A DNA stretch of 64,000 bases. It comes from Pseudomonadota bacterium. GTDB lineage: Bacteria > Myxococcota_A > Bradymonadia > UBA4248. The stretch covers positions 45 to 64,044 of the forward strand of contig JAFUEE010000163.1 in assembly GCA_017464085.1 (NCBI GenBank), in the 5' to 3' direction. Position numbers and translations under genes: made by a program. Numbering within the stretch: the first letter of the stretch is position 1; every line of letters begins with the position of its first letter. Below the pieces are notes generated by a model. It was not told the origin of the DNA and made no database searches. It saw only the letters and a list, made by a program, of their open reading frames with translations. Of this stretch, positions 6,995-63,818 are shown in pieces.

Positions 6995-7076
6995 GGTGGG
7001 CATATCTGGGGGATGAAATCAAGGGTTGTATTTGAAAAGAATCGGCAAGTGCCGGTCTGGTTTTAGAGGAGCAAAT

Positions 7077-17864: not shown

Positions 17865-18963
17865 TATCGACGGAGAACATCCTGGCTACGCTGTCGACGT
17901 GCACATGTTCGCGTGAGGTTGTGGTCAGGAATGTCTGAGTTGTCAGTTGGTTGAGGTATTCAAAAAGCCGTTTGTGCCGTACCGGGTCGAGTTCGCTGGA
18001 GACATCGTCGAGCAGGAAGACCGGTTCGATATCTGCTTCGGCCTTGAGGCATGCGATTTCTGCCATTTTGATCGCGAGGCTCATGGCGCGCTGCTGTCCC
18101 TGGCTGGCATAGAGTTTTGCAGGTCGTCCGTTGAGTGCGATGGACCAGTCGTCGCGGTGAGGTCCTTCGATCATCTGCTGTCGCGCGAGCTCTCTTTCGC
18201 GAGCTTTTGACATCGCATTTCGGTAGGCGTCGAGCACCTGAGCGAGCGGTATTTCGTGTCCGGAGCCGAGCTGGATGTCGTCGCGCATGTTCGCGTTGTG
18301 ATAGACCGGGAGGCATTCCAGGCTCTGATCGAATATCGAGGCGAAGACATGCCGGATGTGCGGGGCGATCAGCCGCAGGTAATCGTACCGCGCTTCGATG
18401 AGCCTGCATCCGATTGGCAGGAGCTGCGCGTCATAGACATCGAGGAGGGAAAGATCGGGTGTTTCGCTGCGAAGGACAGCGGATTTCTGTTTCTGGATTT
18501 TCTGATATTGCTCGAGGTCGATGAGGTATGCGGGTCTGAGGTTGAACACCATCCGGTCGAGGGCGGTTCTGCGGAGCTGTGGCGGAGCCTGCAGGAAGGC
18601 GACATCCATGGGGACGAAGAGGATGGTCCTGAGGATGCCGAGATAATCGCGCGCGCGGGCGCATGGCATGCCGTCGACGAATGGCCTGCGAAGTTTTTGG
18701 TCGAGCTCGAGCCCGAGCCTGACAGTGGCATGATTGTTCTGGACGACGGCCGCGAGCTGTGCCTTCTGTGCATCGAATTCGATGAGGTCGCAGAGCCTGT
18801 CGGCTCGGAATCCTTTGAGAAACGCGAGCGTGTAAATCGCCTCGAGCAGATTGCTTTTTCCCTGTGCATTTGCGCCATAGAAGACATTGAAGCCTTCGGA
18901 GAACTCCAGGCTGATCTGCGAGAGGTTGCGGAAGTGCAGGATATCGAGCGAAGCGAGGTGCAT
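17839..18963 (-). CDS. recF: DNA replication and repair protein RecF
   Basis: LDILHFRNLSQISLEF...FYGANAQGKSNLLEAIY Walker A and overall RecF layout. I chose the start at Met 18963, which has a GGAGGT RBS; the ORF itself extends to 18987. Confidence 0.88.
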   Translation of the reverse strand: MHLASLDILHFRNLSQISLEFSEGFNVFYGANAQGKSNLLEAIYTLAFLKGFRADRLCDLIEFDAQKAQLAAVVQNNHATVRLGLELDQKLRRPFVDGMPCARARDYLGILRTILFVPMDVAFLQAPPQLRRTALDRMVFNLRPAYLIDLEQYQKIQKQKSAVLRSETPDLSLLDVYDAQLLPIGCRLIEARYDYLRLIAPHIRHVFASIFDQSLECLPVYHNANMRDDIQLGSGHEIPLAQVLDAYRNAMSKARERELARQQMIEGPHRDDWSIALNGRPAKLYASQGQQRAMSLAIKMAEIACLKAEADIEPVFLLDDVSSELDPVRHKRLFEYLNQLTTQTFLTTTSREHVHVDSVARMFSVDNGSIQHVC

Positions 18964-18964
18964 A

Positions 18965-19513
18965 TCAGGGGGTGACCTCCACGCCATGTTCGATCACGTT
19001 TCCGTCGATTTCGATCGGTGCCGGGAGCGGGCGTGTAATGTCCGTTGGCAGTGCCTTGGGTTCGATGCGCGGCGGATAGGACTCGTGGACCTCGAGCCCG
19101 AAGCCTTCGTCTGTGATGGAGACGGTGACATCGGCGGCCGGCGCGGAGCCGCGCAGTCTGAACGTCCGGACGGCGCGCTGGCCTCTGACAGGTTTTTCGA
19201 GGTTCAGGTCTGGCGCGCCTTCGGTGAGTTCGGTGTCGCCTTTGAGATCTAGATGCATGCGCGGTGCGCTGTTGAGGTCATCGTGATAGGTAACAGTCGC
19301 AGTCAGCAGCGTGATGTCCGCTTCCTGTTTGGCGGACAGCTCAAGCGTGTATGGGAGCACGAGCGCAGGCATTTCAGCGGCTTGAGCTGCGGTCTCAGAC
19401 GGGGCAGTTGTCGGGGCGTTTGCTTCGGGCGTATCATTTTTTCCTGTGCAGCAGCTTGTGCATAGCAGGAGGGACAGCGCTGGGAGGATGACATATCTTT
19501 TCATGGTAGGCAT
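18965..19513 (-). CDS. Hypothetical lipoprotein
   Basis: Signal peptide MPTMKRYVILPALSLLLCTSCC. No recognisable domain. Abuts recF. Confidence 0.45.
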   Translation of the reverse strand: MPTMKRYVILPALSLLLCTSCCTGKNDTPEANAPTTAPSETAAQAAEMPALVLPYTLELSAKQEADITLLTATVTYHDDLNSAPRMHLDLKGDTELTEGAPDLNLEKPVRGQRAVRTFRLRGSAPAADVTVSITDEGFGLEVHESYPPRIEPKALPTDITRPLPAPIEIDGNVIEHGVEVTP

Positions 19514-21738: not shown

Positions 21739-23826
21739 GTGGACAAACAGACCGGAATTGCATTAAAACGGCATCAGGTTTCCTTTTGCGCGAACTTTGA
21801 GAACGCGAACTATGAAGAAGGAGAGAAGTCCTTGGTAAAGTTAGTTTACAGCGATCAGAGTGGTTGGGAGAAATCGGTAGAGGTCAATGAGCTCAATCCG
21901 ACGATAATGATTGGACGCAATCCGGACTGTGCGGTTCAGACCTCGAATGCTTCAGTATCGCGCGTTCATGCAATGGTGACCTGGAAGGGCGGGAAGGTTT
22001 ATGTTCAGGATCCGCCGAACAGCCATCCGACGAACGGGACGAAAGTCGATGGCATGCGTCTCCAGCCAGGCCAGGTGCTTGAGCTGATGGCAAACAGCGA
22101 GCTTTTGTGCGGCAATTTTGCGATACGCGTGGAGAGCGAGGGGCCAGGCGACCGCGTGTCACACATGGGGGATCAGGGGGCGCTTCCGCAGGGGGGCCCG
22201 ATGTATCAGCAGGGATATAATGGCTATCAGCCGCAGGGGCGTGGCGCGGCAGGCTGGATGCAGCCGGGGCAGGCGCAGCCGAATATACCGCAGCCGGGCG
22301 CGATGATACCGCCGCCGCAGCCTACTCAGATGCCGCAGCAGCAGCCGGTGATGCCGCAGCAGCAACCGGTGATGCCGCCGCAGCAGCCGGTGATGCCGCC
22401 GCAGCCGGCCCAGATGATGCCGCCGCAGCAGCAGGCGGCACAGAATCCGCCGGATTTGAACCGGAAGTCGCGGAGCAACAATGCGCGCGGCTATATGCAG
22501 GGGCGCGATCGCGGCGCGATGTCGGCGGGAGTCATTCCGCATGGCGGCGATGAGGCGCTCAGGCTTCAGGAAGAGATATCTCGACTTCAGGAAGAGAATT
22601 CCCGCCTGCAGGCCGACAATCAGCTTGCTCGCCAGGAGATTGAGGAGCTTCGCTCCAACGGGACTGGAGAGAATTCCGTGAAGGAGCTTCAGGACAAGCT
22701 GGAGGAGCGCGACCAGATATTGACGGATTATGAGCGCCGCATCGAATACCACGAGACAGTCGTGACTGGCCTCAAGGATATGATCGACAAGCTCAAGGAG
22801 CAGATCGACCACCAGAAAGACCAGTATCAGGAATGCCGCCGCGACCTTGTGGCGTCTCAGGAAGAGGCGGAGTCGCTCCGTATGGAACTGTCGACGCTCA
22901 AGGAGACGCTTGATTCGAAGGGGATGGCGACCTCGAATGCTGAGACGACGATCGCGGACTTGAAAGTCCAGCTTCAGCAGAAGAACCGTCTTCTTTCGGA
23001 TCTTCAGCGCGATCTGGATATCGCGCAGTATTCGTGCAAGGAAGAGCGCGACAATGTGGAGCACCTGAAGGAGAATGTGGACAAGCTGAATGCCGAGCTT
23101 GAGGAAAGCCAGCGTCGCAACCGCGACATGAAGAAGGTCGTGGAGCAGCATGAGATGATGTTCAATGAGCTCAAGGGCAACCTGAACGACCGTGCGCGTG
23201 AGATTCGGCAGCTTCAGGATGCGCTGAGAAAACAGGGCGGCGGAGACAACGCGGCGCTGATGCAGGAGCTTGCGCAGGTGCGCGACAGCCTGACGAAGCG
23301 CAACAGCGAGGCGGAGATGCTCCAGAAGCAGCTCGAGGAGGCGCTCAAGGCGGCATCTGGCGCGGAGGCGGCGAATGTGACGCTCAAGGCGCGCGTGTCG
23401 GAGCTTGAAAAGGATGCGGGCGGCGATGCCTCCTTGAAGGCGCGAGTCAGCGTCCTGGAACGTGAGAAAGCGGCGCTCGAAGAGAAGCTTTCCGCCGGAG
23501 CCGGTTCGGGCGGCGGCGTGGACAGCGGCCTGATGGAGCGCATCCGCGGGCTTTACAGCGACATGAATGATGTTGTGAGCCAGTGGCGCGAAGATCTGGG
23601 CATACTTGATTCCAGCCTTTCCGAGCTTCAGACAGTGTTCAAGGCGTATGTGAAGATCGACGTGTCGAAGCTTCAGGAAAAGGATCGCAAGAGGTTGGAC
23701 AAGATTGCCGATCTCGATCCTCGCCTGATTTTTGATGACATCGGGAATTCGCTCTATTCGAGCCAGAATTCATTAGCGTCGATTAAAGAGAAATTGAAAG
23801 ATTTGAGGGGTGCGCTTCAGGCATGA
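21739..23826 (+). CDS. FHA-domain protein with a Pro/Gln-rich linker and a long coiled-coil
   Basis: GTG start. FHA core 'IMIGRNPDCAVQ...VSRVHAMV...KVDGMRL'; the (QQQPVMP)n repeat is encoded by a 21-bp tandem repeat (about 22327-22395). The C-terminal roughly 400 aa has heptad-rich, SMC-like coiled-coil character. Confidence 0.75.
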   Translation: MDKQTGIALKRHQVSFCANFENANYEEGEKSLVKLVYSDQSGWEKSVEVNELNPTIMIGRNPDCAVQTSNASVSRVHAMVTWKGGKVYVQDPPNSHPTNGTKVDGMRLQPGQVLELMANSELLCGNFAIRVESEGPGDRVSHMGDQGALPQGGPMYQQGYNGYQPQGRGAAGWMQPGQAQPNIPQPGAMIPPPQPTQMPQQQPVMPQQQPVMPPQQPVMPPQPAQMMPPQQQAAQNPPDLNRKSRSNNARGYMQGRDRGAMSAGVIPHGGDEALRLQEEISRLQEENSRLQADNQLARQEIEELRSNGTGENSVKELQDKLEERDQILTDYERRIEYHETVVTGLKDMIDKLKEQIDHQKDQYQECRRDLVASQEEAESLRMELSTLKETLDSKGMATSNAETTIADLKVQLQQKNRLLSDLQRDLDIAQYSCKEERDNVEHLKENVDKLNAELEESQRRNRDMKKVVEQHEMMFNELKGNLNDRAREIRQLQDALRKQGGGDNAALMQELAQVRDSLTKRNSEAEMLQKQLEEALKAASGAEAANVTLKARVSELEKDAGGDASLKARVSVLEREKAALEEKLSAGAGSGGGVDSGLMERIRGLYSDMNDVVSQWREDLGILDSSLSELQTVFKAYVKIDVSKLQEKDRKRLDKIADLDPRLIFDDIGNSLYSSQNSLASIKEKLKDLRGALQA

Positions 23827-23925
23827 AGCCTGAGCGGCCTATGGGTTATGGGTGCGCTGTGTCGCATGAGTCATGGGTGCAGCGCGAGCCTGATTTGTGA
23901 AATATTAGACGGGAGCAGACGGATT

Positions 23926-25479
23926 ATGGAAGGAATTCGGGCGAATGTTTCTTCAGAAGAAGAAATCGAGTATTTGATTCGAGCGAGATATCCGCTTATG
24001 TATGTCACAAGTACGGAAGAGGAGCGCGTGGAGAAGAATCTGCGCATCATTTGCGAGCGCCGCAACCGTCGATTTGTGACGTGGTCCTGCACAGAAGGCT
24101 TCCAGGGCGGCGACGGAGACACGTTCAATGATATCCGTGACCCTCAGCGTGCGATGGAGCATATTTTCCGTTATGAGAACGACGCGCTGTTCTGCATGAG
24201 GGATTTTCATCCGTATCTTTCGGATCCGCAGGTCACGCGCCGTCTTCGCGATCTCAGCCGCGAATTCAAGACGAGCCGATACAAGAAGCACGTGCTCCTT
24301 CTGAGCCCGACGTTCAAGATTCCGGTCGAGCTTGAGAAAGAGATGAGCGTGATTGATTACGATCTCCCGAACAGGACGGTCATCAATGAGCTTGTCCTTC
24401 AGGTTCTCAAGAGCGTTCCCGATGAGCTTTGCCAGCAGGTCCGCAACGATCCTCTTTTCCGTGAGAAAGTCGTTGAAGCGGCGCTCGGCCTGACTGCTGT
24501 CGAGGCATCGAACGTGTTTTCCAAGTCTCTGATCATCAAGAAAGACTTTGATATCGAGACGATTGTCGATGAGAAGAAGAATCTGATCCGCAAGAACGGG
24601 TTGCTTGAGTTCTATCAGTCGGATCTGAAGCTTCGCGACATCGGCGGCCTTGAGATTCTCAAGAGCTGGCTCAAGACGCGTAACCTTGCGTTCAGCTCGA
24701 AAGCGCGCGAGTTCGGTCTGCCGCTTCCGAAGGGCATTCTTCTTCTCGGTCTTCCCGGCTGCGGCAAGTCTCTGACTGCAAAATCGGTCGGCGCGCTCTG
24801 GAAGATGCCGCTTCTCCGCCTGGATGTCGGCAAGGTCTTTTCATCGCTCGTCGGTTCGTCAGAAGAGAACATGCGCAAGGCCATTGCAACAGCAGAAGCG
24901 GTCGCGCCGTGCATTCTCTGGATGGATGAGCTTGAAAAAGGCTTCTCCGGCACGAAGTCTTCCGGCCAGACGGATGGCGGTACGGGCGCGCGTGTTTTCG
25001 GTTCGTTCATCACGTGGCTTCAGGAAAAGACGAGCCCTGTATTCGTTATCGCGACGGCAAACGACGTGTCGATGCTTCCGCCGGAACTTCTCCGTAAAGG
25101 CCGTTTTGATGAGATTTTCTTCGTCGATCTTCCGAGCCCCGCAGAGCGCAAGACAATCATCGAGATTCATATCATCAAGAAGAACCGCAAGGTTGCTGAT
25201 TTTGATATTCCTCGTATCGTTGCGGCCACACAGGGCTTTTCAGGGTCTGAAATCGAGCAGGCGATTGTATCCGCACTGTTCGATGCCTATGAGGCGAAAA
25301 AAGATATCGATACGGAAAGCGTGATCCGTTCATGCAACGAAATCATCCCGCTCTCCTATCAGATGAAGGAACGCATCGACTACATGCGTGACTGGGCGAA
25401 GAGCCGCGCTCGCCGTGCCTCTCTCGATGAAGAAGGCGCGCATGAAGAGGACAAACAGATCCGTCATCTTGAGATGTAA
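23926..25479 (+). CDS. Ycf46-like AAA+ ATPase (N-terminal roughly 280-aa domain plus one AAA module)
   Basis: Walker [12 protein letters not shown], Walker [10 protein letters not shown], sensor/arginine-finger region; ATG at 23926 after a GGGAG RBS. The architecture and the N-terminal '[13 protein letters not shown]' block resemble cyanobacterial and plastid Ycf46 (from recall). Confidence 0.8.
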
Positions 25480-37341: not shown

Positions 37342-39537
37342 TCAGGCAGCTGAAAATGTCGCGATGACGATGCTTGTCGGCCAGTCGCATGTCTGACCGC
37401 GCAGATTTATCTGTGCCCATTGCGTGATTGACTCGCACGATTCACGTGACAGATACTGTCCAAGACGGTCGATATAGCTCGGCGTTTCGGCATTGTGGCT
37501 GAACCAGTAAGTGAAAATGGATGGCGTGATTGTCATGCGTCCCGAAAGGTCGAGCTTGCGTATATGCATGTGCATGTCGGATTCTCGGCAGGCCTGTTCG
37601 AGAACCTGCAATGAGAAAATGCGTTCGTGGTCTTGGCTCAGGAGCGTCTCTTCAGCATTTTTCCATGCCGTGACGAGATGCTGGTCGAGTTTTCCTGTGG
37701 GATCGGCCAGGCTGTATATGCGTGGCATTTCAGAGGGCAGCGTGTTCGCGAACGCGATCTTTCCTGTGGGAGATAGGCGAGCCTGTGCGGCGCGCAGTAA
37801 CTCGCCCAGGTCATGGCAGGTGTGCATGAAATTGCGCCCGATGATCGCATCGAATTCGATGTCACCGAACGCGTTGAGCGCATCCGGGGTGATATCGTCC
37901 ACGCGCGCGATTGCGGCGCGTTCGAGTTCAGGACGTTTTGATATGAGTGCTTCAAAGCTGTCTGCCATTGCGGACGGTGTGATGACGGAGAACACGCCGC
38001 CATCCGGACATCTTCTGAGTGCTTCGAATGAAAGCAGTCCGGAGGCTGCATTCAGGTCGAGGATGCGTGCGTTCGGTTGTGGGGAGACGAAGTCGAAGAG
38101 CTCGTTCCGGACGAGGTCGGCGCGCGCGGCTGCGCCGTCAAATGTCCTTCCGATCCATTTTTCTTCGGATGTCGATCGTGCGTCGAGTTCTCTCCGCTCT
38201 TCAAACAGCGCGAGCTGAGCCTCGCGGTTCCGCGAGACTTTTGCGGCAATGGTTGCCTCATACCCGATGTCTGTCGGATGATAGAATATACGTCCCTGAA
38301 GGCCGTCAGGGAGGTATTGCTGTGCGACCCAGTGGTCGCGGTAGGCATGCGGATAGAGATAGCCCTGCCCGTGCCCGAGTCCGTCCTTGTCGCGCGAGGC
38401 ATCCTTGAGCGGGTCAGGGATGTCATAAGAAGCTTCTTTCTGGACGACAGAGAGCGCGTCAAAAAAGGCCATTGCGGAGTTCGATTTGGGCGCGGTGGAG
38501 AGATAGATCGTGGCATGCGCGAGGTGGTAACGGCCTTCGGGCAGCCCGATGCGATCAAACGCCTGAGCGCAGGATTCCACGACGGAAACGGCATGTGGGT
38601 CTGCCATGCCGATATCTTCGCACGCGCTGATGAGCAGCCTGCGGAAGATGAAGTTAGGGGATTCCCCGGCCTGTACCATTCTCGCGAGCCAGTAGAGCGC
38701 GGCATCCGGGTCGCTTCCACGGATGCTTTTGATAAAAGCGCTGATCGTGTCGAAGTGCGCGTCACCTTCTTTGTCATAGAGGACTGCGCGCTGCTGTATG
38801 GATTCCTCGGCGACAGCGAGCGTGATTTCGATCTGTCCGGAACTGTCGGGCTCCGTGGTGACGACTGCGAGCTCGAGGGCATTGAGCAGCGCGCGTGCAT
38901 CGCCGTTTGCGACATTGACAAGATGCGCCAGGGCTTCTTCTCGCATATTGATGTTGAGCAGCCCGAAGCCCCTGTCGGGATCGCTGAGTGCCTGGAGCGC
39001 GATTCCGCGCAGATCGGAAGTTCCGAGCGGCCTGAGCTGGAAGATTCTGGATCGGCTGACGAGCGCCTTGTTGACTTCGAAATACGGATTTTCAGTTGTG
39101 GCGCCGATCAGGGTGATCGTGCCATTTTCGACCCACGGGAGAAGCGCGTCCTGCTGGCTTTTGTTAAAGCGGTGCACTTCGTCGACGAACAGGATGCTCT
39201 TTCGGTTGACCAGAGAGAAGTTCTGTTTGGCGGAGTCGATGGCTTCGCGGATATCCTTGACGCCCGCGAGCACGGCGTTGAGCGACAGGAACTTGCATCG
39301 CGTTGTGTTTGCGATGATGCGCGCGAGCGTTGTTTTTCCCGTTCCGGGCGGGCCGTAAAAGATGACGCTTGAGAGCTGGTCGGCTTCGATTGCTCTGCGG
39401 AGCAGCCTGCCTTTCGCAAGTATGTGCGCCTGTCCCCAGAATTCGTCCAGCGAGCGTGGGCGCATTCTGGCTGCAAGGGGTTCATGGGGTCTGTCGGGGA
39501 CGGGCTTGGGGGCAGGGCGGTCAAAAAGGGAGGGCAT
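37342..39537 (-). CDS. rarA: Replication-associated recombination protein A (RarA/MgsA) fused to a C-terminal class I SAM-methyltransferase-like domain
   Basis: N-terminal roughly 440 aa = RarA (FYGPPGTGKTTLARIIA Walker A, ILFVDEVHRFNK Walker B, MgsA C-terminal helical domain). The C-terminal roughly 290 aa carries 'ARILDLNAASGLLS' (motif I-like), 'VFSVI' and 'FDAIIGRNF' (motif IV-like). Confidence 0.8.
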   Translation of the reverse strand: MPSLFDRPAPKPVPDRPHEPLAARMRPRSLDEFWGQAHILAKGRLLRRAIEADQLSSVIFYGPPGTGKTTLARIIANTTRCKFLSLNAVLAGVKDIREAIDSAKQNFSLVNRKSILFVDEVHRFNKSQQDALLPWVENGTITLIGATTENPYFEVNKALVSRSRIFQLRPLGTSDLRGIALQALSDPDRGFGLLNINMREEALAHLVNVANGDARALLNALELAVVTTEPDSSGQIEITLAVAEESIQQRAVLYDKEGDAHFDTISAFIKSIRGSDPDAALYWLARMVQAGESPNFIFRRLLISACEDIGMADPHAVSVVESCAQAFDRIGLPEGRYHLAHATIYLSTAPKSNSAMAFFDALSVVQKEASYDIPDPLKDASRDKDGLGHGQGYLYPHAYRDHWVAQQYLPDGLQGRIFYHPTDIGYEATIAAKVSRNREAQLALFEERRELDARSTSEEKWIGRTFDGAAARADLVRNELFDFVSPQPNARILDLNAASGLLSFEALRRCPDGGVFSVITPSAMADSFEALISKRPELERAAIARVDDITPDALNAFGDIEFDAIIGRNFMHTCHDLGELLRAAQARLSPTGKIAFANTLPSEMPRIYSLADPTGKLDQHLVTAWKNAEETLLSQDHERIFSLQVLEQACRESDMHMHIRKLDLSGRMTITPSIFTYWFSHNAETPSYIDRLGQYLSRESCESITQWAQINLRGQTCDWPTSIVIATFSAA

Positions 39538-39647: not shown

Positions 39648-42600
39648 CTATTCGCAGTGTATGCATCCGGCCGGGCATGTGTCAGCCGCGTCGCGGCAGT
39701 CTTCTGGTGTCGCATCGTCTCTGAGGATTACAGCCTGGCCGTCGTCATTGAAGCCGAAAGTCCTGTCGTCCAGCGAGATGCATGCGCCGCATGAGAGGCA
39801 TTTTGCAGAGTCCAGCCAAGGGGCGCGAGGTTTGTCTTCAGCAGATGCTGCACGTGCATCTTGTGTCTGCGGGCTTTGCGTCGGCACGAGTGATTGATGC
39901 GTATCTTGAGCAGGTGTGGCCGTTATGGCGATCTGTGCGGGCGGTTCGCCTGCCAGCCCTTCGATATATGCAGATTCATCGCGAATGGCTTCGTTGAAAT
40001 CTGGCTCGGAAGCAGTAGGATGTCCGAGATGTGCGTGCAGAGAGCTGAGGCATTGCTCAAGGGTTTCGGCTGTTTTTCGGATGATTTCCTGAGACGCATC
40101 GTATTGCATGGAAGCCTGTTCGACAGCCTTCTGCGAGGCTTCGAGCTGCTTGAGATGGAGAGCGGTGCGGGCATCTTGCGCGAGCTGAAGCTGAGCTTTT
40201 GTGGAGAGCGAAAGTTCTCGCAGGGTCTTCCAACGCTGCATGCGGTCGATGCATGCATTGACGACATCGCGTGTCATGATGCATTTGCGGAGCGTGGAGT
40301 CGACGACGCCCCAGATGAACGGGATATGCGGCCTGTCGAAGGATGGGGATTTTAGAAATTCGCCGATCTCGACGAGTTCGTCATTCCATGCGTCATTTGG
40401 GAGGATACGGAAATACTGATGATATCCAGGTTCGAGCGCAAGCGCGTGCGCGTAGGTGAATGTTCCGGACATCTGCCTGATATTGCCGTCTGCATCGATA
40501 TAGGAGAACTGGCAGGTCGGCCAGACCTGGTCGATCTGCGGATTTTCGTCGACGTTGAAGCGTTCGACGCGAGTTTCTCCGATGCTCGGGTCATACTGGA
40601 ACATGGGAGCGGTGCGCGCGTAGTGCGCGGCTTCGAGCTGGACACGCGGCGGGAGTCGCCAGGACCATGTCGGACAAGCGACGACAGTGATTGCGGGGCG
40701 CAGCATTCGGTTCATGCGCGTGAGGGTTTTGACGAGATGTTCCGGACGCGCGAGCGATGACTGCGCGACGAATGCTTCGCGGAATGCCGTTGCGAGGTAG
40801 CTGAAGCCGGGGTCGTAGTTTGCGTGGTCTTTGCTGTTGCCTGTATTTTGCGAAGTTGATTCGAACGCGAGCACGACGATGGGCTTTCCTGCGCGGATGA
40901 TGCGCGAGAGCGGGGAGAGCTGCGCGTAGATCCGTTCTGTTGTTTCTGCGATGCAGAGAACGGGCAGCAGCCTGAGTTCGTCTTCAGACAGATCCTGCCA
41001 CGTGAATTGCTCGAGGATGTCTGCATGAAAGACCGGATCGTATGCATTGTCGATATCAAGTCTCGCCATGCGCATGGCTTTGAACGCCTCGACATGTTTC
41101 TGGCTGATTGCGTCGAAGAGTCCGGTCGCGACGGCGATGGGCTCTTCGTGGCAGATGCTTCGCACGCGGTCATAGGAGGTTTTGACCTGGACTTCTGGCG
41201 GATAGATAAAGATGAGGTCGTCTGAGGAGTCGAGGTGCTTGAGGAAGTTTTCGAGCGTGTCGAGGGATGCGGTCATTCTGCTGATGCGCTCGGGGTCGTG
41301 CTGGACGTGTCCTCTGTGCTGATGCGAGAGGTCTTTGGAGATTTCGTGGATGTCTAGCAGTCCATCGGCAGCATCCCCAAACGCATCTCTGAGCGCGTCT
41401 TCGGACATGCCGAACGGGCCGTATGCGTCGTCGAGCCTGAGTGATTCGCGCAGCTGCGTGATGAGTCCTCGTATTTCTGCGCGAACATCACGGATGCGGC
41501 TTCTCCGCGCAGCGCGTACTGCAAGGACATAAAGGTCGAGCAGGGTGTGCGTGTTGAGCCCGATAAGATAGCACTCATCGGGCAGGGCTGTGATGAATTC
41601 TCGGATGCTGCTTCGTATAGCAGGTGAAAATCCCGGATCGGCAGTCGTTGAAGCTGTCAAAGCCTCGTCGAGGAGTTTTCTTGCCGGGGTGATGAGCAGT
41701 GTGTCGTCGGAGATTTTTTCGGCATACGCGAGGAAGCTCGTCAGGCTTCGCTCTGCGGTGGAATCATCGGGGAGTGTTGAGAATTTTTGGCGGAGCGCTT
41801 CGTCGAGCCGGCTGGCCTGCAGTGAGGGATTGCCCGAGATGCGGGTCGCAAGCAGCGGGTAGTGATGTTCCTGATTGAGCGCTTCGAGGTAGGGATTGAG
41901 CGCAGCCGGACGGATGGAGAGACCTGGGAGCGGATGATGGTGCGCGTCTGAGGATTGGCCGCGCACGAAGAAATTACGTATGATTGTTCGCCATGTAGAG
42001 GCATCTGAACGGTTTTGTACGGCAGGCAGCATTCTGGGGAGCTTGATCTGCGGGGCGAAATAGGGGTCAAACCTGTCGGAATACTGAATGGAGCGGTCGA
42101 CTTCTCGAACTTCCTGCATGCCGGTCATAAGCCGTGCGTAAGCATCTTTTGATATGAGACGGTTCTGAAGTATCTCGTCAGAATTGATTTGTGCGCCAGT
42201 ATGTATCTGAATGAGTCTGAGAAGCGCGCCGTGGACGGCATAGCTGCCGTACCTGTCGATTGTGCTGTATTCGTCGATGAGCGCGCCCGCGAGCGAGTAA
42301 ATGCCGATCTGTTTTTTCTCGATGAAGGTCTGCATGGCGGGGCTGAAAAGCGGCCAGATGGAGGCTTCTTCGACGCTTCTCCCAAGGACGAGGACAATCG
42401 CGTGATCGGAGAGCGGCTGGAGTATATTTTCAATGTCAAGAAGGCCCGGATGCGAGAGGAAGAGCACGTCAATTGGCAAATTTTCGCGTTCAGAGTGTTC
42501 GACATGGACTTTTTCCAGCCCGAGCGCGCTGATCTGCGGGTGAGTGCATTTGACAGGAAATGCGGAGAGTCCGTTTGATTTTTCGAGGTATGATGCGAGA

Positions 42601-43586
42601 TCGAACAGCAGGCCTCGGCTCATCTGGCCGCCTGGCGCGGCGCCGATGACGAGCGGTCTGTCTTCTTTTGGGCTTGTGAACGTGATGGAATCCTCAACAG
42701 CTTGCGCGTCGATGCCGACAGTTTCTGCAATTGTCTCGATCGAGTCGTCAGACGGCATGCTGATATAGCGGAATGAGCGGTTTGAGAGCGCCTGCGCGAG
42801 AGGCGCATGAAAGTCTGACTGTTCGTATGTGTCAGTTTCATCGAGGATGAGGATTATCTTCTGATTTGCGAGGCAGTCCAGGACTGTTTTTTCAGGGAAG
42901 GGGCGCATGACTTTCGGACAGACATAGCTTGCGCAGAGGTTATGTTTTTCAAGCAAGCCTGTGAGCGCGCGGGCTTCATCGATGTATCGTCCTGAGGAGA
43001 GTATGCAGATGCCGTGGGGGCTGGCATGGCTGGCTTCAACGCTGGCGATGGGGAGGCCGAATCTGTTCTGGAAGCGCGTGAAGCTTTCCTCGATTGTCCT
43101 GAGTATCAGCGCATCATCGAGGATGTCTCGTGTTTTGGCGCCAATGGGGGAGATGGCGTCGAGCATTTCTCGGGAGATCATGCGAGCGCCTTCGAGGCGC
43201 GCGGCATGCCTGTCGTCGATGGTGCAGAGGCCTGGCAGACCGAGCCGTGCGGCGACATCATGGGCGATAAGGCAGTGATAGACTGCTTCCTGAGCGGAGG
43301 TCGCCTGAAGTTCGAAAGGCAGGCGGATTCTGAGCGGATCGGCGCATTTGCGTTCCCTGTGGCAGACGAGCGTGGAAGGCATGGAAGGCAGCGTGAGATC
43401 TGGATTATTCTTGTCGCTGAAAAGCGCGGCGGCGCGCTGGTTGAGCAGTGCAAAACCTTCGGCTTCGGCGATTGAAAATCTGGCGCCGGAGCGGCAGATC
43501 AGCGCTTCGGAGATGTTGATGTGCCTGCGCGTAGCGCGGACTAGCCATTTGTCGAGCAGTTCGAATGATTCCATGACGAAACGCAC
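39648..43586 (-). CDS. Highly divergent pyruvate:ferredoxin oxidoreductase (PFOR/NifJ)-like protein with a C-terminal single-cluster ferredoxin domain
   Basis: 1312 aa. A PFOR domain II / transketolase-C-like block (GICILSSGRYIDEARALTGLLEKHNLCASYVCPKVMRPFPE...ILILDETD). A POR domain III block (VIGAAPGGQMSRGLL...IDVLFLSHPGLL...AIVLVLGRS). A domain VI-like block (PIVVLAFESTSQNTGNSKDHANYDPG...RPAITVVACPTW) with no GDG TPP/Mg motif. A C-terminal CLSCGACI...CPAGCIHCE 4Fe-4S motif. Confidence 0.45.
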   Translation of the reverse strand: MRFVMESFELLDKWLVRATRRHINISEALICRSGARFSIAEAEGFALLNQRAAALFSDKNNPDLTLPSMPSTLVCHRERKCADPLRIRLPFELQATSAQEAVYHCLIAHDVAARLGLPGLCTIDDRHAARLEGARMISREMLDAISPIGAKTRDILDDALILRTIEESFTRFQNRFGLPIASVEASHASPHGICILSSGRYIDEARALTGLLEKHNLCASYVCPKVMRPFPEKTVLDCLANQKIILILDETDTYEQSDFHAPLAQALSNRSFRYISMPSDDSIETIAETVGIDAQAVEDSITFTSPKEDRPLVIGAAPGGQMSRGLLFDLASYLEKSNGLSAFPVKCTHPQISALGLEKVHVEHSERENLPIDVLFLSHPGLLDIENILQPLSDHAIVLVLGRSVEEASIWPLFSPAMQTFIEKKQIGIYSLAGALIDEYSTIDRYGSYAVHGALLRLIQIHTGAQINSDEILQNRLISKDAYARLMTGMQEVREVDRSIQYSDRFDPYFAPQIKLPRMLPAVQNRSDASTWRTIIRNFFVRGQSSDAHHHPLPGLSIRPAALNPYLEALNQEHHYPLLATRISGNPSLQASRLDEALRQKFSTLPDDSTAERSLTSFLAYAEKISDDTLLITPARKLLDEALTASTTADPGFSPAIRSSIREFITALPDECYLIGLNTHTLLDLYVLAVRAARRSRIRDVRAEIRGLITQLRESLRLDDAYGPFGMSEDALRDAFGDAADGLLDIHEISKDLSHQHRGHVQHDPERISRMTASLDTLENFLKHLDSSDDLIFIYPPEVQVKTSYDRVRSICHEEPIAVATGLFDAISQKHVEAFKAMRMARLDIDNAYDPVFHADILEQFTWQDLSEDELRLLPVLCIAETTERIYAQLSPLSRIIRAGKPIVVLAFESTSQNTGNSKDHANYDPGFSYLATAFREAFVAQSSLARPEHLVKTLTRMNRMLRPAITVVACPTWSWRLPPRVQLEAAHYARTAPMFQYDPSIGETRVERFNVDENPQIDQVWPTCQFSYIDADGNIRQMSGTFTYAHALALEPGYHQYFRILPNDAWNDELVEIGEFLKSPSFDRPHIPFIWGVVDSTLRKCIMTRDVVNACIDRMQRWKTLRELSLSTKAQLQLAQDARTALHLKQLEASQKAVEQASMQYDASQEIIRKTAETLEQCLSSLHAHLGHPTASEPDFNEAIRDESAYIEGLAGEPPAQIAITATPAQDTHQSLVPTQSPQTQDARAASAEDKPRAPWLDSAKCLSCGACISLDDRTFGFNDDGQAVILRDDATPEDCRDAADTCPAGCIHCE

Positions 43587-43871
43587 CTCCTGGATGATGC
43601 GGCAGGACCTGGCCGCAGGGTGTGAGGGGTTTAATCCTTTTAAAGAAGTGTGTGAACAGAAAAAAGCGCACTCAGAGACGCGGCAAAGGTGAGGAGCATG
43701 AGTGGCGAAACCGTGACTGATGACTGGGCATCTGTGTGCCCGTTGCGTGCAAGCGTGAGCGTGTGTCGTTTGTCGTATCTGGGTGATGTAAAAAAATCAC
43801 ATGTCGGAGGCTGCCGCGCTTGAGTGTAAGCGATGGCGCCGGCGTATTGAGCGCAGCGAGGAGCCGGCGCC

Positions 43872-43905
43872 CGCGCGCGTATCGCCATGGGGCGATAGCG
43901 CGCGG
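43872..43905. repeat. REP-like palindrome (inverted orientation)
   Basis: CGCGCGCGTATCGCC-atgg-GGCGATAGCGCGCGG, in the 640-bp ORF-free region upstream of the kinase gene. Confidence 0.6.
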
Positions 43906-44230
43906 ATAAGGAAATGAATGCAGATGCGTATGAGAAACAGATGCGGAAAAAAAGATCGTCAGGCAAATGTCAGAAAAAGTAAGATTTTGGTGCTTAGATG
44001 TCTGATGTGGCATGAAATGTGCTTGGAAATATCGTTTGGTGTGCGGAAATTGCCGCATTTCGTGTTTCAAATTTGTCCCATTATGCCTCGTATGCGTGAG
44101 TTTGCGATTAGAAGTGGAAAATGCATGCGAGATAAGTTACAAAGCAGACGGTTATGTGTCTTTGTGATGCTGAATCGTTATAGAGCGCATGTTATGGCTT
44201 TCTGACGGCGCGTGATGCAGGTAGTTTTGG

Positions 44231-46769: not shown

Positions 46770-47627
46770 ATGACCGCTGAATTACTCGATGGCAAGGCCG
46801 TATCTGCCGCCATACAGGCGGAGATCCGCGAGCGTGTGAACGCGCATTTCACGCCGGAAACGGCGCCGAGGCTTTGCGTGATTTTGGTGGGTGACAATCC
46901 CGCGAGCGCAAGCTATGTGCGCACGAAGTGCAGGATGGCGGAAAAGCTCGGTTTCCGCCATGAAATCTATCACTTTGATGCCGATGTGTCGCAGGCTGAG
47001 GTTGAGGCGCGCATCGATGCATGCAATGCGGATCCGATGTGTGACGCGGTGTTCGTGCAGCTTCCGCTGCCCAGGCATCTGGATGCGGTCGCGCTTCCCA
47101 ACAGGGTGCGCGCGGACAAGGATGCGGACGGCCTGACACGCGCGGCGATGGGCGCGCTGCTTTTGGGCGAAACGAATGCCTTTCAGCCATGCACGCCTCG
47201 CGGGATCATCCGGCTGCTCGATGCCTATCATATCGATATGACCGGGATGGATGCGGTCGTGATCGGGCGCAGCAATATCGTCGGCAAGCCGATGAGCCTG
47301 ATGCTCCAGCGGCGCAACGCGACCGTGACGATGTGCCACACGCGCACGAAAGACCTCGCATCTCATGTCATGCGCGCGGATCTGCTCGTCGTCGCTGCCG
47401 GAAGCCCCGAACTCGTCAAGGGGGAATGGATCAAGCCGGGCGCGGTCATCGTCGATGCCGGGTTTACCAAAACGCCTGACGGCGTCATTCACGGCGATGT
47501 CGAGTTTGAACCTGCGCGCGAGCGTGCGAGCTATATCACCCCGGTGCCGGGGGGCGTCGGCCCTATGACCGTGATCAGCCTCATGGAACAGACGCTTGAA
47601 AGCGCGCTCGCACATCGGTGTAGGTAA
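46770..47627 (+). CDS. folD: Bifunctional methylenetetrahydrofolate dehydrogenase/cyclohydrolase
   Basis: MTAELLDGKAVSAAIQAEIRERV..., the PRGIIRLL...GRSNIVGKP...VVAAGSPELVKGEWIKPGAVIVDAG Rossmann region, and the GGVGPMTV motif. Confidence 0.9.
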   Translation: MTAELLDGKAVSAAIQAEIRERVNAHFTPETAPRLCVILVGDNPASASYVRTKCRMAEKLGFRHEIYHFDADVSQAEVEARIDACNADPMCDAVFVQLPLPRHLDAVALPNRVRADKDADGLTRAAMGALLLGETNAFQPCTPRGIIRLLDAYHIDMTGMDAVVIGRSNIVGKPMSLMLQRRNATVTMCHTRTKDLASHVMRADLLVVAAGSPELVKGEWIKPGAVIVDAGFTKTPDGVIHGDVEFEPARERASYITPVPGGVGPMTVISLMEQTLESALAHRCR

Positions 47628-47773
47628 ATGTGCGGCATTGTGCGCGAAATGCTGCATGAATCCTTGATTTGGCATTGTTTTTTTGTTGTTTCGTTTGAGA
47701 AAAAAGCCCTATAAAAGGTCTCGTTGTCTTGCGCATCAGCGCATTTTTTACTCTTTTTTCAGGAGCAGGGAAC

Positions 47774-60008: not shown

Positions 60009-61199
60009 TTATTTATTGACGAGCGCGTAGGTCTGCTGAGCGATTGCGAGCTCTTCGTTTGTCGGGACAATCCAGACTTCGACTTTGGATTTGTCCGTGG
60101 AGATTTTGCGTTCTTTGCCGTGGCAGTCGTTGGCGGCGAGGTCGATATCGACGCCGAGGAGGCCGAGCTTCTTGCATACAGCTTCGCGGACGTAGGGGCT
60201 GTTCTCCCCGATGCCGGCGGTGAAGATGATGGCATCGACGTGGCCGAGGACCATCGCGTAAGCGCCGATGTACTTGACGATGCGATAGACGAAGACGTCC
60301 ATGGCGCGGATGCAGGCGGGATTGTTTTCGGCGACGCCGTCTTCGATGACGCGGCAGTCATTGGAGATGCCGGAGAGGCCGAGGAGGCCGGACTGTTTGT
60401 TGATGAGGTTGTCAAGCTGGTCGGCGTTCATGCCTTTGGTGCGGCCGAGATAGGTGAGGACGGCGGGGTCGATGTCGCCGCAGCGCGTGCCCATGCAGAG
60501 GCCTTCGAGCGGCGTGAGTCCCATCGAGGTGTCGACGGATTTGCCGCCCTGGACGGCCGTGATCGAGGAGCCGCTGCCGAGGTGGCAGCTGATGATGTTC
60601 ATGTCCTTGATGTCGCGGCCCAGGAGGTTCGCGAGGCGGTTCGAGACGAACTCATGGGACGTGCCGTGCGCGCCGTAACGGCGGATGTGGTCTTCCGTGT
60701 AGAGTTTGTAGGGAATCGCATAGAGATAGGCGTATTCGGGGATTGTCTGATGGAAAGACGTGTCGAAGACGGTGACGTTCGGAACGCCGGGAAGTAGCTT
60801 CTGGGCGACTTTGAGGCCGATGACATGCGCGGGGACATGGAGCGGATCGAGGGGATAGACGCGCTCGATTTCGTCGATGATGCTCTGGTCGACGAGGCAG
60901 GTTTTGGTGAGTTTTTCGCCGCCGTGAACGACGCGGTGACCGACGGCCTTGATTTCGTCGAGGGATTTGATCGTGCCGTCGAGGAGGAGTTCGAAGACGC
61001 GCTTGAGGCCGGCTTCGTGGGTCGGGAAGACTTCGTCGGTGATCTCGACTTTTTTGCCGTCGGCTGTCTTGTGCTTGAGGATGCCGACTTCTTCGCCGAT
61101 GCGCTCGACGTTGCCCTTGGCGAGCACGTCGCCGGCAGGCATATCGAGGAGCTGATATTTGACTGTAGAGGAACCGCAGTTGATGACGAGTAATTTCAT
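60009..61199 (-). CDS. ackA: Acetate kinase
   Basis: MKLLVINCGSSTVKYQLLDM..., with the HLGSGSS and FTAGIGEN motifs. Confidence 0.93.
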   Translation of the reverse strand: MKLLVINCGSSTVKYQLLDMPAGDVLAKGNVERIGEEVGILKHKTADGKKVEITDEVFPTHEAGLKRVFELLLDGTIKSLDEIKAVGHRVVHGGEKLTKTCLVDQSIIDEIERVYPLDPLHVPAHVIGLKVAQKLLPGVPNVTVFDTSFHQTIPEYAYLYAIPYKLYTEDHIRRYGAHGTSHEFVSNRLANLLGRDIKDMNIISCHLGSGSSITAVQGGKSVDTSMGLTPLEGLCMGTRCGDIDPAVLTYLGRTKGMNADQLDNLINKQSGLLGLSGISNDCRVIEDGVAENNPACIRAMDVFVYRIVKYIGAYAMVLGHVDAIIFTAGIGENSPYVREAVCKKLGLLGVDIDLAANDCHGKERKISTDKSKVEVWIVPTNEELAIAQQTYALVNK

Positions 61200-62117: not shown

Positions 62118-63662
62118 TCAGCCCTGAGCCTGGATGGCTGTGACGATGACGGTGTTGACGATATCGGCAACAGTGGCGCCGCGGCTGAGGTCATTGACGG
62201 GCTTGTTGAGGCCCTGGAGGAGCGGGCCGATCGCGAGCGCGTTTGCGGAGCGCTGGACGGCTTTGTAGCCGATATTGCCGGCGTTGAGCGTCGGGAACAC
62301 GAAGACATTGGCCTTGCCTGCGACGGGGCTGTCGGGGAGCTTGGTCTTTGCGACGGAAGGGACGACGGCGGCATCGTATTGGATGGGGCCTTCAACGGCG
62401 AGATCCGGCGCGGCTTCGCGGACTTTCTCGGTGGCTTCGCGGACGGCATCGACATCTGGGCCGGAGCCGGATGTGCCGGTGGAGTAGGAGAGCATCGCGA
62501 TTTTGGGATCGATGCCGAAGGCTTTTGCCGTGGCTGCGGATGCGATCGCGACATCGCGGAGCTGGTCGGTCGTCGCATTGGGGATGACCGCGCAGTCGCC
62601 ATAAATATAGACGCGGTCCGCGAGGCTCATCAGGAACACGCCGGAAACAGTCTTGATGCCGGGTTTCGTCTTGATGAACTGGAGTGCCGGGCGGATGGTG
62701 TCGGCAGTCGAGGTCGTCGCGCCGGAGACCAGGCCGTCTGCAACGCCTTTATAGACCATCATCGTGCCGAAATAGGTCTTGTCGGCCATGAGCTTGCGTG
62801 CTTTGTCGAGCTCCATGCCTTTGGCTTTGCGGAGTTCGTAGAGCGTGTTGGCATAGTCTTCGAGGTCTGCGGATTTAGCGGGGTCGATAATCTTGATGCC
62901 GTCGAGGGAGACGCCGAGTTCTGCTGCATTGCGTTTGATCTCATCTTCGTTGCCGAGCAGGATGAGGTTGACGAGATCCTGAGCGCGGAGCTCAGCGGCG
63001 GCCTTGAGGATTCGGTCGAGCGCGCCTTCGGGGAGGACGATAGTCTTCTTGTCGGCGCGGCATTTGTCGTGCAGGCTGCGCATGAATTTGGTCGGCGTCG
63101 TGATGCTGCTGGAGGCGACGATCTTGTCTGCCGCGAGCTTGGCTGCGGACGGTTTGATGACTGTGAGCCCTTTGGCTTCGATGAGTTTGACGGCTGCATC
63201 GGAGCAGTTGGAGGCGACGACGGTCACGGTGATGCCGTCCTGCGCGAGCAGCTTGACATTGAGTTCAGCCGATGCGGCGACCTGCTCGTCGGTCTTGTCT
63301 TTGGCGCAGATTGCCGGAATGACGCAGGCATCGATATTTTTCGCGAGTGCGATGTTGAGACCATAGGCATCGCGGAGCGCGCCTTCATCGGCGATCGGAT
63401 GGAGAATGACGACATCGGCGTCTTTGCCGGCGGCTTCCACGCGGTCCACGAGAATCGACAGAAGCGCGTCTTTTTTGCCGTCCGCGATCATCTTGAGGGC
63501 TTCGCATTTGCAGAAGGAATCTCCGCAAGCTTCATCTTTGCAGCCCGCGAGCGGCGCGAGCAGGGCAACACGTTTTCCCTGAGCTTCGAGGTCGGCCTTG
63601 ATGCCGGCCGCCAGTTTCGGGGAACATGAATCACAGCACATGAGCAGGATCGATTTTGCCAT
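62118..63662 (-). CDS. pta: Phosphate acetyltransferase (N-terminal extra domain plus PTA_PTB domain)
   Basis: The C-terminal roughly 330 aa is a Pta catalytic domain (…SGVFLM…, GDCAVIPN, VFVFPTLNAGNIGYKAVQRS…). The N-terminal roughly 180 aa is a Cys-containing accessory domain. I chose the start at Met 63662 (GGAGAT RBS). Confidence 0.85.
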   Translation of the reverse strand: MAKSILLMCCDSCSPKLAAGIKADLEAQGKRVALLAPLAGCKDEACGDSFCKCEALKMIADGKKDALLSILVDRVEAAGKDADVVILHPIADEGALRDAYGLNIALAKNIDACVIPAICAKDKTDEQVAASAELNVKLLAQDGITVTVVASNCSDAAVKLIEAKGLTVIKPSAAKLAADKIVASSSITTPTKFMRSLHDKCRADKKTIVLPEGALDRILKAAAELRAQDLVNLILLGNEDEIKRNAAELGVSLDGIKIIDPAKSADLEDYANTLYELRKAKGMELDKARKLMADKTYFGTMMVYKGVADGLVSGATTSTADTIRPALQFIKTKPGIKTVSGVFLMSLADRVYIYGDCAVIPNATTDQLRDVAIASAATAKAFGIDPKIAMLSYSTGTSGSGPDVDAVREATEKVREAAPDLAVEGPIQYDAAVVPSVAKTKLPDSPVAGKANVFVFPTLNAGNIGYKAVQRSANALAIGPLLQGLNKPVNDLSRGATVADIVNTVIVTAIQAQG

Positions 63663-63818
63663 TCCTATATCTCCATTTGAAAAGCGCCAGATTTGGAAAA
63701 TATCTGGCAGTGTAAAGACGTTATGAGCCATTTCTGAGAAAACATGCCCAAAAATGGCGCAAGGCTTTTACTCCAAATCAAGCATTTGAGCGAGATATTT
63801 TATATATATTGTGTCGGG

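Follow-up and report, generated by a model that had tools for sequence, protein, structure and literature searches.

Pyruvate:ferredoxin oxidoreductase (PFOR), 2-oxoacid:ferredoxin oxidoreductase (OFOR) and the Rnf complex hold a central place both in the energy metabolism of anaerobes and in the reductive tricarboxylic acid cycle. Full-length, homodimeric PFOR (NifJ/YdbK) is known from structures of the D. africanus (1B0P) and Moorella thermoacetica (6CIN/6CIQ) enzymes; its features include a GDG...N motif for thiamine pyrophosphate (TPP), a Pyr loop, an activating Glu, the Cys ligands of cluster A, and domain V. Here we describe a gene found within a single long open reading frame (ORF; 39648-43586, minus strand) of a 64,000-nucleotide stretch of contig JAFUEE010000163.1 (GenBank assembly GCA_017464085.1, a member of the Bradymonadia)—this whole stretch is referred to below as the window. 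Its product shares with full-length PFOR a common fold and the domain order I, II, III, IV, VI; however, it has none of the features just listed, and it adds a C-terminal linker and a single-cluster ferredoxin to the full-length plan. On balance, we consider it probable that this protein is a non-catalytic descendant of full-length PFOR, acting as an electron-transfer or docking protein and not as an enzyme. Residue numbers refer to the 1308-aa protein unless marked as 1312-aa ORF numbering.

Other described proteins share parts of this architecture. The two-subunit OFORs of the KorAB/StOFOR type (5B46, 6N2N) have homologous domains, and the Foldseek search described below matched 5B46_A at E=3e-6 and 6N2N_A at E=8e-7; KorAB is catalytic, has POR_N and TPP_enzyme_C above the Pfam cut-offs and carries no ferredoxin domain; in the window protein the situation is the opposite. 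The last 58 aa of the window protein match small single-cluster ferredoxins (Thermotoga maritima, 1ROF/1VJW; D. africanus Fd I, 1DAX/1FXR), including CxxCxxC...CP. Here, by contrast, a PFOR-shaped body carries the tethered ferredoxin, which accounts for only about 4% of the 1308-aa chain.

The best sequence bridge to PFOR is a 1641-aa protein from a Bryobacterales metagenome-assembled genome (MAG; locus L011, 7034-11959). This extended PFOR clade has in common with the window protein a helical insertion in domain VI, a C-terminal extension, a linker and Fer4_13, at 24% identity over 698 aa. The L011 protein keeps YPITPS, the activating Glu, the two domain-V clusters, 'GGDGACLGCGEKT', 'GGDG...DTQVYSNTGGQ' and TPP_enzyme_C, none of which is present in the window protein; because those motifs are kept, the L011 PFOR looks catalytically competent. 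Our literature search did not find a Fer4_13-tailed extended PFOR of this type described. For PFOR pseudoenzymes, TPP-less PFOR-like proteins and clusters combining Rnf with OFOR, the literature searched gave nothing specific beyond one entry: a table for the Riftia symbiont Candidatus Endoriftia persephone that lists KorA(3) (LOY14_RS16060), KorB(3) (RS16065) and a 'PFOR-like ferredoxin' (WP_006475426.1, RS16070), and in which the expression of the three falls together (-2.62, -2.57 and -1.91, respectively; PMC11636981). The entry fits the arrangement, described below, in which korA and korB precede relatives of the window gene; WP_006475426.1 is known by its label and gene order, and we treat it as a lead and not as a test.

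Homology to PFOR and domain order

Pfam matched PFOR_II at aa 194-255 (E=0.007, under the gathering score), NCBIfam returned only OFOR-alpha matches, all far below threshold, and the single sequence searched against PDB sequences matched nothing but small ferredoxins. A profile of 20 family members, searched against the PDB, found the M. thermoacetica PFOR 6CIN at E=1.2e-9 over the whole chain; it also matched the alpha subunit of oxalate oxidoreductase (E=1.9e-8) and D. africanus PFOR. Profile and 6CIN align in collinear stretches in domain II (161-252/240-332), domain III (349-437/459-547) and domain VI (894-1010/981-1115); taken over the whole chain, and within domain II, the match reaches significance; the stretches in III and VI are weaker.

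An AlphaFold2 model of aa 1-1136 (mean predicted local distance difference test score, pLDDT, 80.9; predicted template modelling score, pTM, 0.74) served as the Foldseek query against the PDB. The top 18 matches were full-length PFORs only (6CIQ/6CIN/1B0P; E values 4e-25 to 7e-21, approximately 1200-1400 aligned columns), followed by OFOR alpha subunits and other transketolase-like folds. The global TM-score against PFOR is only 0.24-0.28; judging by the monomer model, the domains match, but their placement and the insertions differ.

The L011 PFOR, which itself matches 6CIN at E=2e-94, contains POR_N, PFOR_II, POR, two Fer4 motifs and TPP_enzyme_C. BLASTP aligns the window protein with it in three collinear high-scoring segments: 72-277/135-391 (E=2e-3), 368-573/553-779 (E=9e-4) and 658-1306/990-1618 (E=1e-49). 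Sequence and model comparisons thus agree in marking the window protein as a genuine PFOR homologue with domains I-II-III-(IV)-VI in canonical order.

A sequence-only reading of this DNA had recognised PFOR domain II, a domain III block ('GAAPGGQ') and a domain-VI-like block, and had proposed that the domain order was rearranged and that an insert of about 500 aa lay between the POR and VI-like blocks. The domain assignments were borne out—domain II by the sub-threshold PFOR_II match (E=0.007) and the family profile against 6CIN (E=1.2e-9), and domain III by the alignment of its block with the 'GGWGAITTG' loop of real PFOR, adjoining the collinear segment at aa 368-573. The VI-like block 'VVLAFESTSQNTGNS' (aa 900-914) aligns to 'VLILDTQVYSNTGGQ'; the resemblance holds for the block as a whole and fails for its 'NTG' part, which varies in a homologue of 80% identity and lies in a low-pLDDT loop. 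The rearranged order is refuted by the three collinear BLASTP segments and by the Foldseek alignment over some 1200-1400 columns. Nor is there a large insert, because the profile-to-6CIN offsets of 110 in domain III and 87 in domain VI leave the spacing of these domains only about 23 aa above that of 6CIN. The same reading had suggested comparing an AlphaFold model with PFOR by Foldseek, and it is this comparison that places full-length PFORs, including 1B0P, on top.

Loss of the catalytic features

Alignment to the L011 PFOR reveals what has been lost. Domain I is about 100 aa shorter than in PFOR, with the 'YPITPS' loop deleted, and the TPP-activating Glu is gone ('GEH' of L011 aligns to 'GAR' in MAFFT). 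The TPP/Mg motif is also gone: 'SIGGDGAMYDIG...LDTQVYSNTGGQ' of L011 aligns to 'CIAETTERIY-A...FESTSQ--NTGNS', with 'IAETTERIY' (40926-40952) at the GDG position, 'AETT' in the GDG column itself, and 'VVLAFESTSQNTGNS' (40833-40877) in the one-time Mg/Asn strand. That no GDG...N motif was evident had been noticed before, and it holds on proper alignment of the TPP, Mg and cluster-ligand columns to L011.

The internal clusters fare no better. At the proximal cluster (cluster A), 'GGDGACLGCGEKT' of L011 aligns to 'CYLIGLNTHT', with the CxxC of 'CLGCGEKT' facing 'LIGLNTHT' ('YLIGLNTHT' at the CxxC position lies at 41544-41570); 'STGCTSVWG' aligns to 'SSDDLIFIY' ('TGC' to 'SDD'), and near the fourth ligand position there is just a non-conserved Cys. 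The dicluster domain V (two CxxCxxCxxxCP motifs) and the N-terminal part of domain VI are replaced by a Cys-poor helical segment; about 125 aa are missing in the domain V region relative to L011, a single Cys lies between aa 496 and 783, and Pfam gives no Fer4-type match outside aa 1255-1310 (1312-aa ORF numbering). These alignments predict a body that can bind neither thiamine diphosphate nor an internal Fe-S cluster.

The sequence-only reading had left two alternatives: a PFOR paralogue that is non-catalytic and may serve in electron transfer or as a scaffold, and a new 2-oxoacid oxidoreductase architecture. The evidence fits the former and gives no support to the latter in a catalytic sense, since the TPP site is degenerate in both of its halves and there is no proximal cluster. 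An oxidoreductase of new architecture that still holds TPP or another cofactor through non-canonical residues could draw on the preserved overall fold, on the acidic E876 beside the one-time GDG Asp and on the [DE][ST] retained in the next strand; we nevertheless consider it very unlikely, given that the Pyr loop and Glu are deleted, the GDG and N motifs are lost, no proximal cluster is left to take electrons off a cofactor, the cofactor-binding domains have no Pfam match, and the Pyr domain is entirely absent from the short forms of the family described below.

A single-cluster ferredoxin at the C-terminus

Pfam Fer4_13 (PF13370) matches aa 1259-1310 of the 1312-aa ORF with 34.3 bits against a cut-off of 24.5 (E=3.8e-8), Fer4_15 is also above its Pfam threshold at the C-terminus, and PDB ferredoxins match at E=9e-6 (1ROF/1VJW) and E=7e-5 (1DAX). 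The cluster Cys are residues 1259, 1262 and 1265 (39780-39800) and 1300, the last within 'CP' (in the stretch 39651-39683). Across 154 family sequences these Cys are 99% conserved, making them the most conserved residues of the family. The earlier observation of a single CxxCxxC...CP ferredoxin motif at the extreme C-terminus is confirmed by the Fer4_13 and 1ROF matches; the idea that this ferredoxin is domain V moved to a new place is rejected, as its Pfam family is another one and L011 has it alongside domain V. We read it as a Fer4_13 domain added at the end of the chain. The sole redox centre left would be a putative [4Fe-4S] ferredoxin domain, attached through a flexible linker of some 120 aa, whose length and sequence vary among homologues (alignment A1). 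The window protein ends in 'CIHCE', without a 'CIHPGxP...RA..FN' tail.

Selection and persistence

We estimated the ratio of non-synonymous to synonymous substitution rates (dN/dS) by the Nei-Gojobori method between the window gene and L001, for which dS is about 1. The values are 0.13 for domain I, 0.32 for domain II, 0.12 for domain III, 0.10 for the domain-IV-like and helical segments, 0.05 for domain VI, 0.26 for the linker and 0.07 for the ferredoxin. Every domain is under purifying selection, and domain VI, though degenerate, is the most constrained part (92% identity to L001). Full-length homologues with an intact frame number 17, at 43-100% identity.

These results bear on one possible reading of a PFOR without catalytic motifs, namely that it is a decaying, functionless remnant. 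All catalytic motifs are indeed lost and the gene is solitary; however, a frame of about 1300 aa stays intact in 17 homologues down to 43% identity, dN/dS of 0.05-0.32 in every domain contradicts decay, the gene has a strong Shine-Dalgarno sequence, and its family comprises more than 1000 clusters with conserved motifs. We conclude from the dN/dS values and the intact homologues that the gene is not a relic, a reading we regard as extremely unlikely.

An unnamed family associated with korAB and rnf genes

A word-indexed homologue search returned only 21 relatives and understated the family, which we refer to as X. An exhaustive search with a profile built from aa 505-1312 (1312-aa numbering) returned 2859 clusters at E<=1e-3 and 1141 at E<=1e-30; the latter cover profile positions of about 3-802 of 803, a module of domain IV, domain VI, extension and ferredoxin. 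Members come in short (around 830 aa) and long (around 1300 aa) forms. The best 150 include 52 long forms (about 1250-1430 aa) with the architecture of the window protein and 96 short forms (about 700-950 aa) that consist of this module and lack domains I-III. CxxCxxC...C[PTAS] is kept in 149 of these 150 representatives, and the 'HPGxP...RA..FN' tail, absent in the window clade, in 137; GDG at the TPP column and the cluster-A CxxC at the aligned columns occur in none of them. A regular expression for GDG-X(20-35)-N matched 19 representatives, and we rejected these matches as TPP motifs: in the aligned part the GDG is off the TPP column, and in three short forms the stray GDG aligns to 'DIG', six residues downstream of the true GDG.

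The window protein has in common with X proteins the module of domain VI, extension and Fer4_13 and the lack of TPP and cluster-A motifs; the long forms P0018 and P0019 share its full architecture at about 26% identity. X proteins are named 'ferredoxin' or 'hypothetical protein' in databases, and their hosts are MAGs of Myxococcota, Acidobacteriota, Gammaproteobacteria, 'Deltaproteobacteria' and Riflebacteria. The most fitting place for the window gene is among the long forms of this large, unnamed family of korAB/Rnf-associated ferredoxin proteins derived from PFOR, as a solitary member.

Residues invariant across the family include R838, H853, W862, E869, R935, R990, N1014 and W1021 (1312-aa ORF numbering). 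Because most of them are common to the competent L011 PFOR, we take them as inherited structural or interface features and not as a new active site. They would also suit a structural pseudo-protomer—a protein that replaces one OFOR/PFOR protomer and stabilises or tunes its catalytic partner, for example in oxygen tolerance or assembly, with the ferredoxin secondary. PFOR active sites span the dimer interface, as seen in structures 1B0P and 6CIN, and the long forms resemble a whole protomer while the short forms resemble only its beta/VI part. We think this rather unlikely, since Cys conservation of 99% and a dN/dS of 0.07 place the cluster at the centre of function; the proposal also overlaps our preferred explanation and differs from it in emphasis alone.

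Genomic context was surveyed at 80 metagenome loci, located with an alignment (A4) of comparatively uniform relatives; the denominators below count the loci whose sequence extends far enough. On the same strand, korB immediately precedes X at 55 of 57 loci. Downstream of X, an rnfB-like gene lies within 2 kb at 41 of 66 loci, a gene we call Y at 26 of 42, and rnfC at 20 of 30. The operon order is korA (a fused gamma-alpha of about 635 aa), korB (about 317 aa, with TPP_enzyme_C) and X, often followed by a gene for an RnfB-like Fe-S protein, Y (1250-1570 aa), rnfC, rnfD and rnfG. Among individually inspected relatives, korA-korB-X is seen at L008, L009, L010, L012 and L013, with korB directly upstream of X at L014 and downstream rnf genes at L012 and L013. 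The KorA/KorB pair of L008, the pair scanned with Pfam, has no ferredoxin domain.

Y (L012:11448-16064, L013:7416-11705 and 19 further metagenome loci, e.g., L034, L048 and L072) keeps both domain V CxxCxxCxxxCP motifs and is without YPITPS, the activating Glu, the cluster-A Cys ('GDGAEPGSGE'), GDG, the N motif and a C-terminal ferredoxin. X and Y thus look like complementary pseudo-PFORs, and the operons combine a single catalytic OFOR with this complementary pair of PFOR-shaped Fe-S proteins, both cofactor-less, next to Rnf. At L011, the PFOR gene directly follows an rnfB-like gene and korAB is divergent upstream; the L011 PFOR probably stands near the ancestral form from which the X and Y pseudoenzymes arose.

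The X relatives described above sit behind korAB (55 of 57), often before rnfB-Y-rnfCD, and in 137 of 150 representatives have the HPGxP tail, whereas the window gene is solitary and tail-less. Its closest relatives are animal-gut and rumen Myxococcota MAGs (L001-L006; water-buffalo rectum, goat omasum, UBA4248 and others) and a Bradymonadales MAG (L007). Around the gene, this clade shares a syntenic set of housekeeping genes: a Ser/Thr kinase in divergent orientation, an MgsA-type AAA+/methyltransferase fusion, IF3, XseA and M16 peptidases. Searches of the 64-kb window, by tblastn and by scanning the majority of its larger ORFs with Pfam, turned up no korAB, canonical PFOR, OFOR or rnf, and the approximately 7 kb beyond the window carry cell-division genes and no redox genes. 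Since the gene has left the operon, context does not indicate the partner in the window clade.

Another explanation makes the protein a pseudoenzyme with a regulatory or sensory role: a metabolite (CoA, acyl-CoA, a 2-oxoacid or a nucleotide) would still bind in the vestigial active-site cleft or in domain III, and this binding, together with the redox state of the cluster, would be relayed to another protein, e.g., via the divergent Ser/Thr kinase. The domain III 'IGAAPGGQMSRGLL' loop is strongly conserved inside the gut clade; however, it varies in the wider family (P0018 and P0019 differ), and domains I-III are missing altogether from the short forms. The kinase is divergently adjacent in the window, L001, L002, L005 and L006, but this adjacency is confined to closely related syntenic genomes and carries little weight. 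That the cleft region of domain VI is the most constrained part would agree with a sensor; the dominant context of the family consists of redox enzymes and not regulators. On this evidence a sensor role seems improbable.

Proposed function

We favour a non-catalytic PFOR paralogue because of the PFOR homology, the loss of TPP and cluster ligands, the tethered ferredoxin, the purifying selection and the korAB/rnf position in relatives. The PFOR-shaped body (the cut-down domain I, II, III, IV and the degenerate VI) would act as a docking module or pseudo-protomer that binds a catalytic 2-oxoacid:ferredoxin oxidoreductase, a downstream redox partner, or both, and the tethered ferredoxin would swing between the partners, carrying single electrons. 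In the relatives, KorAB, itself devoid of a ferredoxin domain, would be the catalytic partner, and the Rnf complex with Y the downstream one. Physical docking, the direction of electron flow and the partner in this gut Myxococcota genome are parts of the proposal that we infer.

Several observations weigh against this proposal. In the window and L001-L007, tblastn over about 10 kb on each side, where the contig allows (several loci have no upstream sequence), found no korA, korB, rnfB-like gene, Y or rnfC; for the window clade, the operon argument is borrowed from relatives at 24-27% identity. Docking in this clade may differ, because the HPGxP...RA..FN tail is lacking. Finally, a conserved Glu (E876) stands beside the one-time GDG Asp ('AETT') and is followed by [DE][ST] in the next strand, and the 'AETT' site may retain some metal or diphosphate binding.

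A bolder version of electron transfer, which we put forward tentatively and regard as doubtful, is that X and Y form a pseudoenzyme conduit hard-wiring KorAB to Rnf. Such a supercomplex would link NAD+/NADH to the oxidation of 2-oxoglutarate or pyruvate or, running in reverse, to reductive carboxylation driven by an ion gradient, with no need for a free ferredoxin pool; the copy that stands alone in gut Myxococcota would then be derived and would plug into another low-potential enzyme.

Gene model and architecture

The ORF finder places a GTG start at 43586, giving 1312 codons, which is also the length that the sequence-only reading had used. This GTG overlaps a perfect Shine-Dalgarno sequence (AGGAGG, 43586..43591, minus strand) that lies 11 nt before an ATG at 43574, four codons further downstream; the homologues in the alignment all begin 'MES...', and the database protein P0001 ('MAG: ferredoxin [Proteobacteria bacterium]'), 1308 aa long, is identical to the gene product. 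From the Shine-Dalgarno spacing, the 'MES...' starts and the length of P0001, we read the ATG as the real start and the GTG as no start, and the gene has 1308 codons plus a stop. Coordinates are collected in Table 1.

Table 1. Coordinates of the gene and of the segments of its product (aa, 1308-aa protein).
Feature	Position	Strand	Evidence
Complete gene, TPP-less PFOR-like protein with C-terminal ferredoxin	39648..43574	-	ORF list, P0001 identity, Foldseek E=4e-25
Domain I, cut-down Pyr domain, aa 1-152	43119..43574	-	MAFFT vs L011 PFOR and P0021; BLASTP segment 72-277/135-391
Domain II, transketolase-C-like fold, aa 153-300	42675..43118	-	Pfam PFOR_II; family profile vs 6CIN 240-332
Domain III, POR/gamma-like Rossmann, aa 301-495	42090..42674	-	Alignment to L011 PFOR; BLASTP segment 368-573/553-779
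'GAAPGGQ' loop of domain III, aa 311-317	42624-42644	-	
Disordered hinge and domain-IV-like segment, aa 496-590	41805..42089	-	Alignment to L011 PFOR
Cys-poor helical segment, aa 591-783	41226..41804	-	MAFFT alignment; helices in model
Domain VI (degenerate), PP-domain core and clade-specific C-terminal extension, aa 784-1131	40182..41225	-	BLASTP to L011 PFOR; profile vs 6CIN 981-1115
Linker, predicted helices then Pro/Ala/Gln-rich tract, aa 1132-1250	39825..40181	-	Sequence
Single-cluster ferredoxin domain, aa 1251-1308	39651..39824	-	Pfam Fer4_13; PDB ferredoxins

A Pfam scan of the protein gave no match to POR, POR_N or TPP_enzyme_C, and no Pfam or NCBIfam family covers aa 300-1250. Domain III is modelled with a beta-alpha-beta pattern at pLDDT mostly 75-91, with dips to 50-63 in two loops. 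The hinge and domain-IV-like segment, 'W..IRNFFVRGQS..HPLPGLSIRPAAL', matches 'RFWEQTGTFYIAGKG..DPFIGLSFIPAAT' of the L011 PFOR and is kept across the family.

In domain I, two Cys are nearly invariant in the long forms: aa 27 ('LICR', 43494-43496) and aa 117 ('PGLCTID', 43224-43226). Aligned Cys are present in the competent L011 PFOR ('VIMCERE' and 'PGICAQD') and absent from 6CIN; the pair may form a clade-specific disulfide or metal site.

Other features of the window

Directly downstream of the gene, after a 110-bp gap, lies a 731-aa MgsA/RarA-type AAA+ ATPase with a C-terminal methyltransferase (37342-39537, minus strand); this adjacency is conserved in L001, L003, L005 and L006. On the other side, the intergenic region to the divergent Ser/Thr kinase (43575-44230) is unusually long, at about 650 bp versus 200-340 bp in L001, L002 and L006. 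It contains a 132-aa ORF (43672-44070, minus strand) that we considered as part of the system and rejected, as it has no Pfam match and is not conserved in related loci.

Acetate kinase (60009-61199, minus strand; Pfam E=1e-151) and phosphotransacetylase (62118-63731, minus strand; E=6e-129) are encoded close together. They make up the ATP-yielding branch from acetyl-CoA to acetate, consistent with a fermentative gut anaerobe that needs acetyl-CoA, possibly from a PFOR encoded elsewhere. Two adjacent genes (4157-6994 and 7026-10328, both plus strand) encode giant proteins of 945 and 1100 aa with Cys-rich Stig1-like repeats and IgGFc_binding (E=1e-69 and 5e-66), which may be secreted adhesins. 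At 16260-18987 (minus strand), a dynamin-family GTPase adjoins an SMC_N/RecF-like ATPase; separately, at 21739-25479 (plus strand), an FHA-domain coiled-coil protein is followed by an AAA+ ATPase. FolD (THF_DHG_CYH) is encoded at 46770-47627 (plus strand), where the gene is called in the source scaffold (L095); the overlapping ORF at 46782-47675 (minus strand), which has no Pfam match, is probably a shadow of it. Between about 50000 and 60000, GC content is 42-48%, compared with about 57% elsewhere in the window. Genes in this stretch encode a DUF4160 protein, a 993-aa protein with almost no Pfam match, a protein with a metallo-beta-lactamase fold, an NFACT/RqcH-like protein and a subtilase; the stretch could have been horizontally acquired.

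Implications

The findings bear on how low-potential electrons pass between PFOR/OFOR and Rnf, especially for KorAB enzymes that have no ferredoxin domain of their own. They also have a consequence for annotation: when pyruvate metabolism is inferred from MAGs, X genes should be left out of the tally of PFOR, nifJ and por. More broadly, the analysis exposes a family of more than 1000 clusters that public records list just as 'ferredoxin' or 'hypothetical protein', and in which a whole PFOR has become a cofactor-less body with one tethered cluster. If X proteins are dedicated wires or docking subunits, they would offer a clear example of a pseudoenzyme made from a large metabolic enzyme, and direct coupling of KorAB to Rnf would be open to experimental test.

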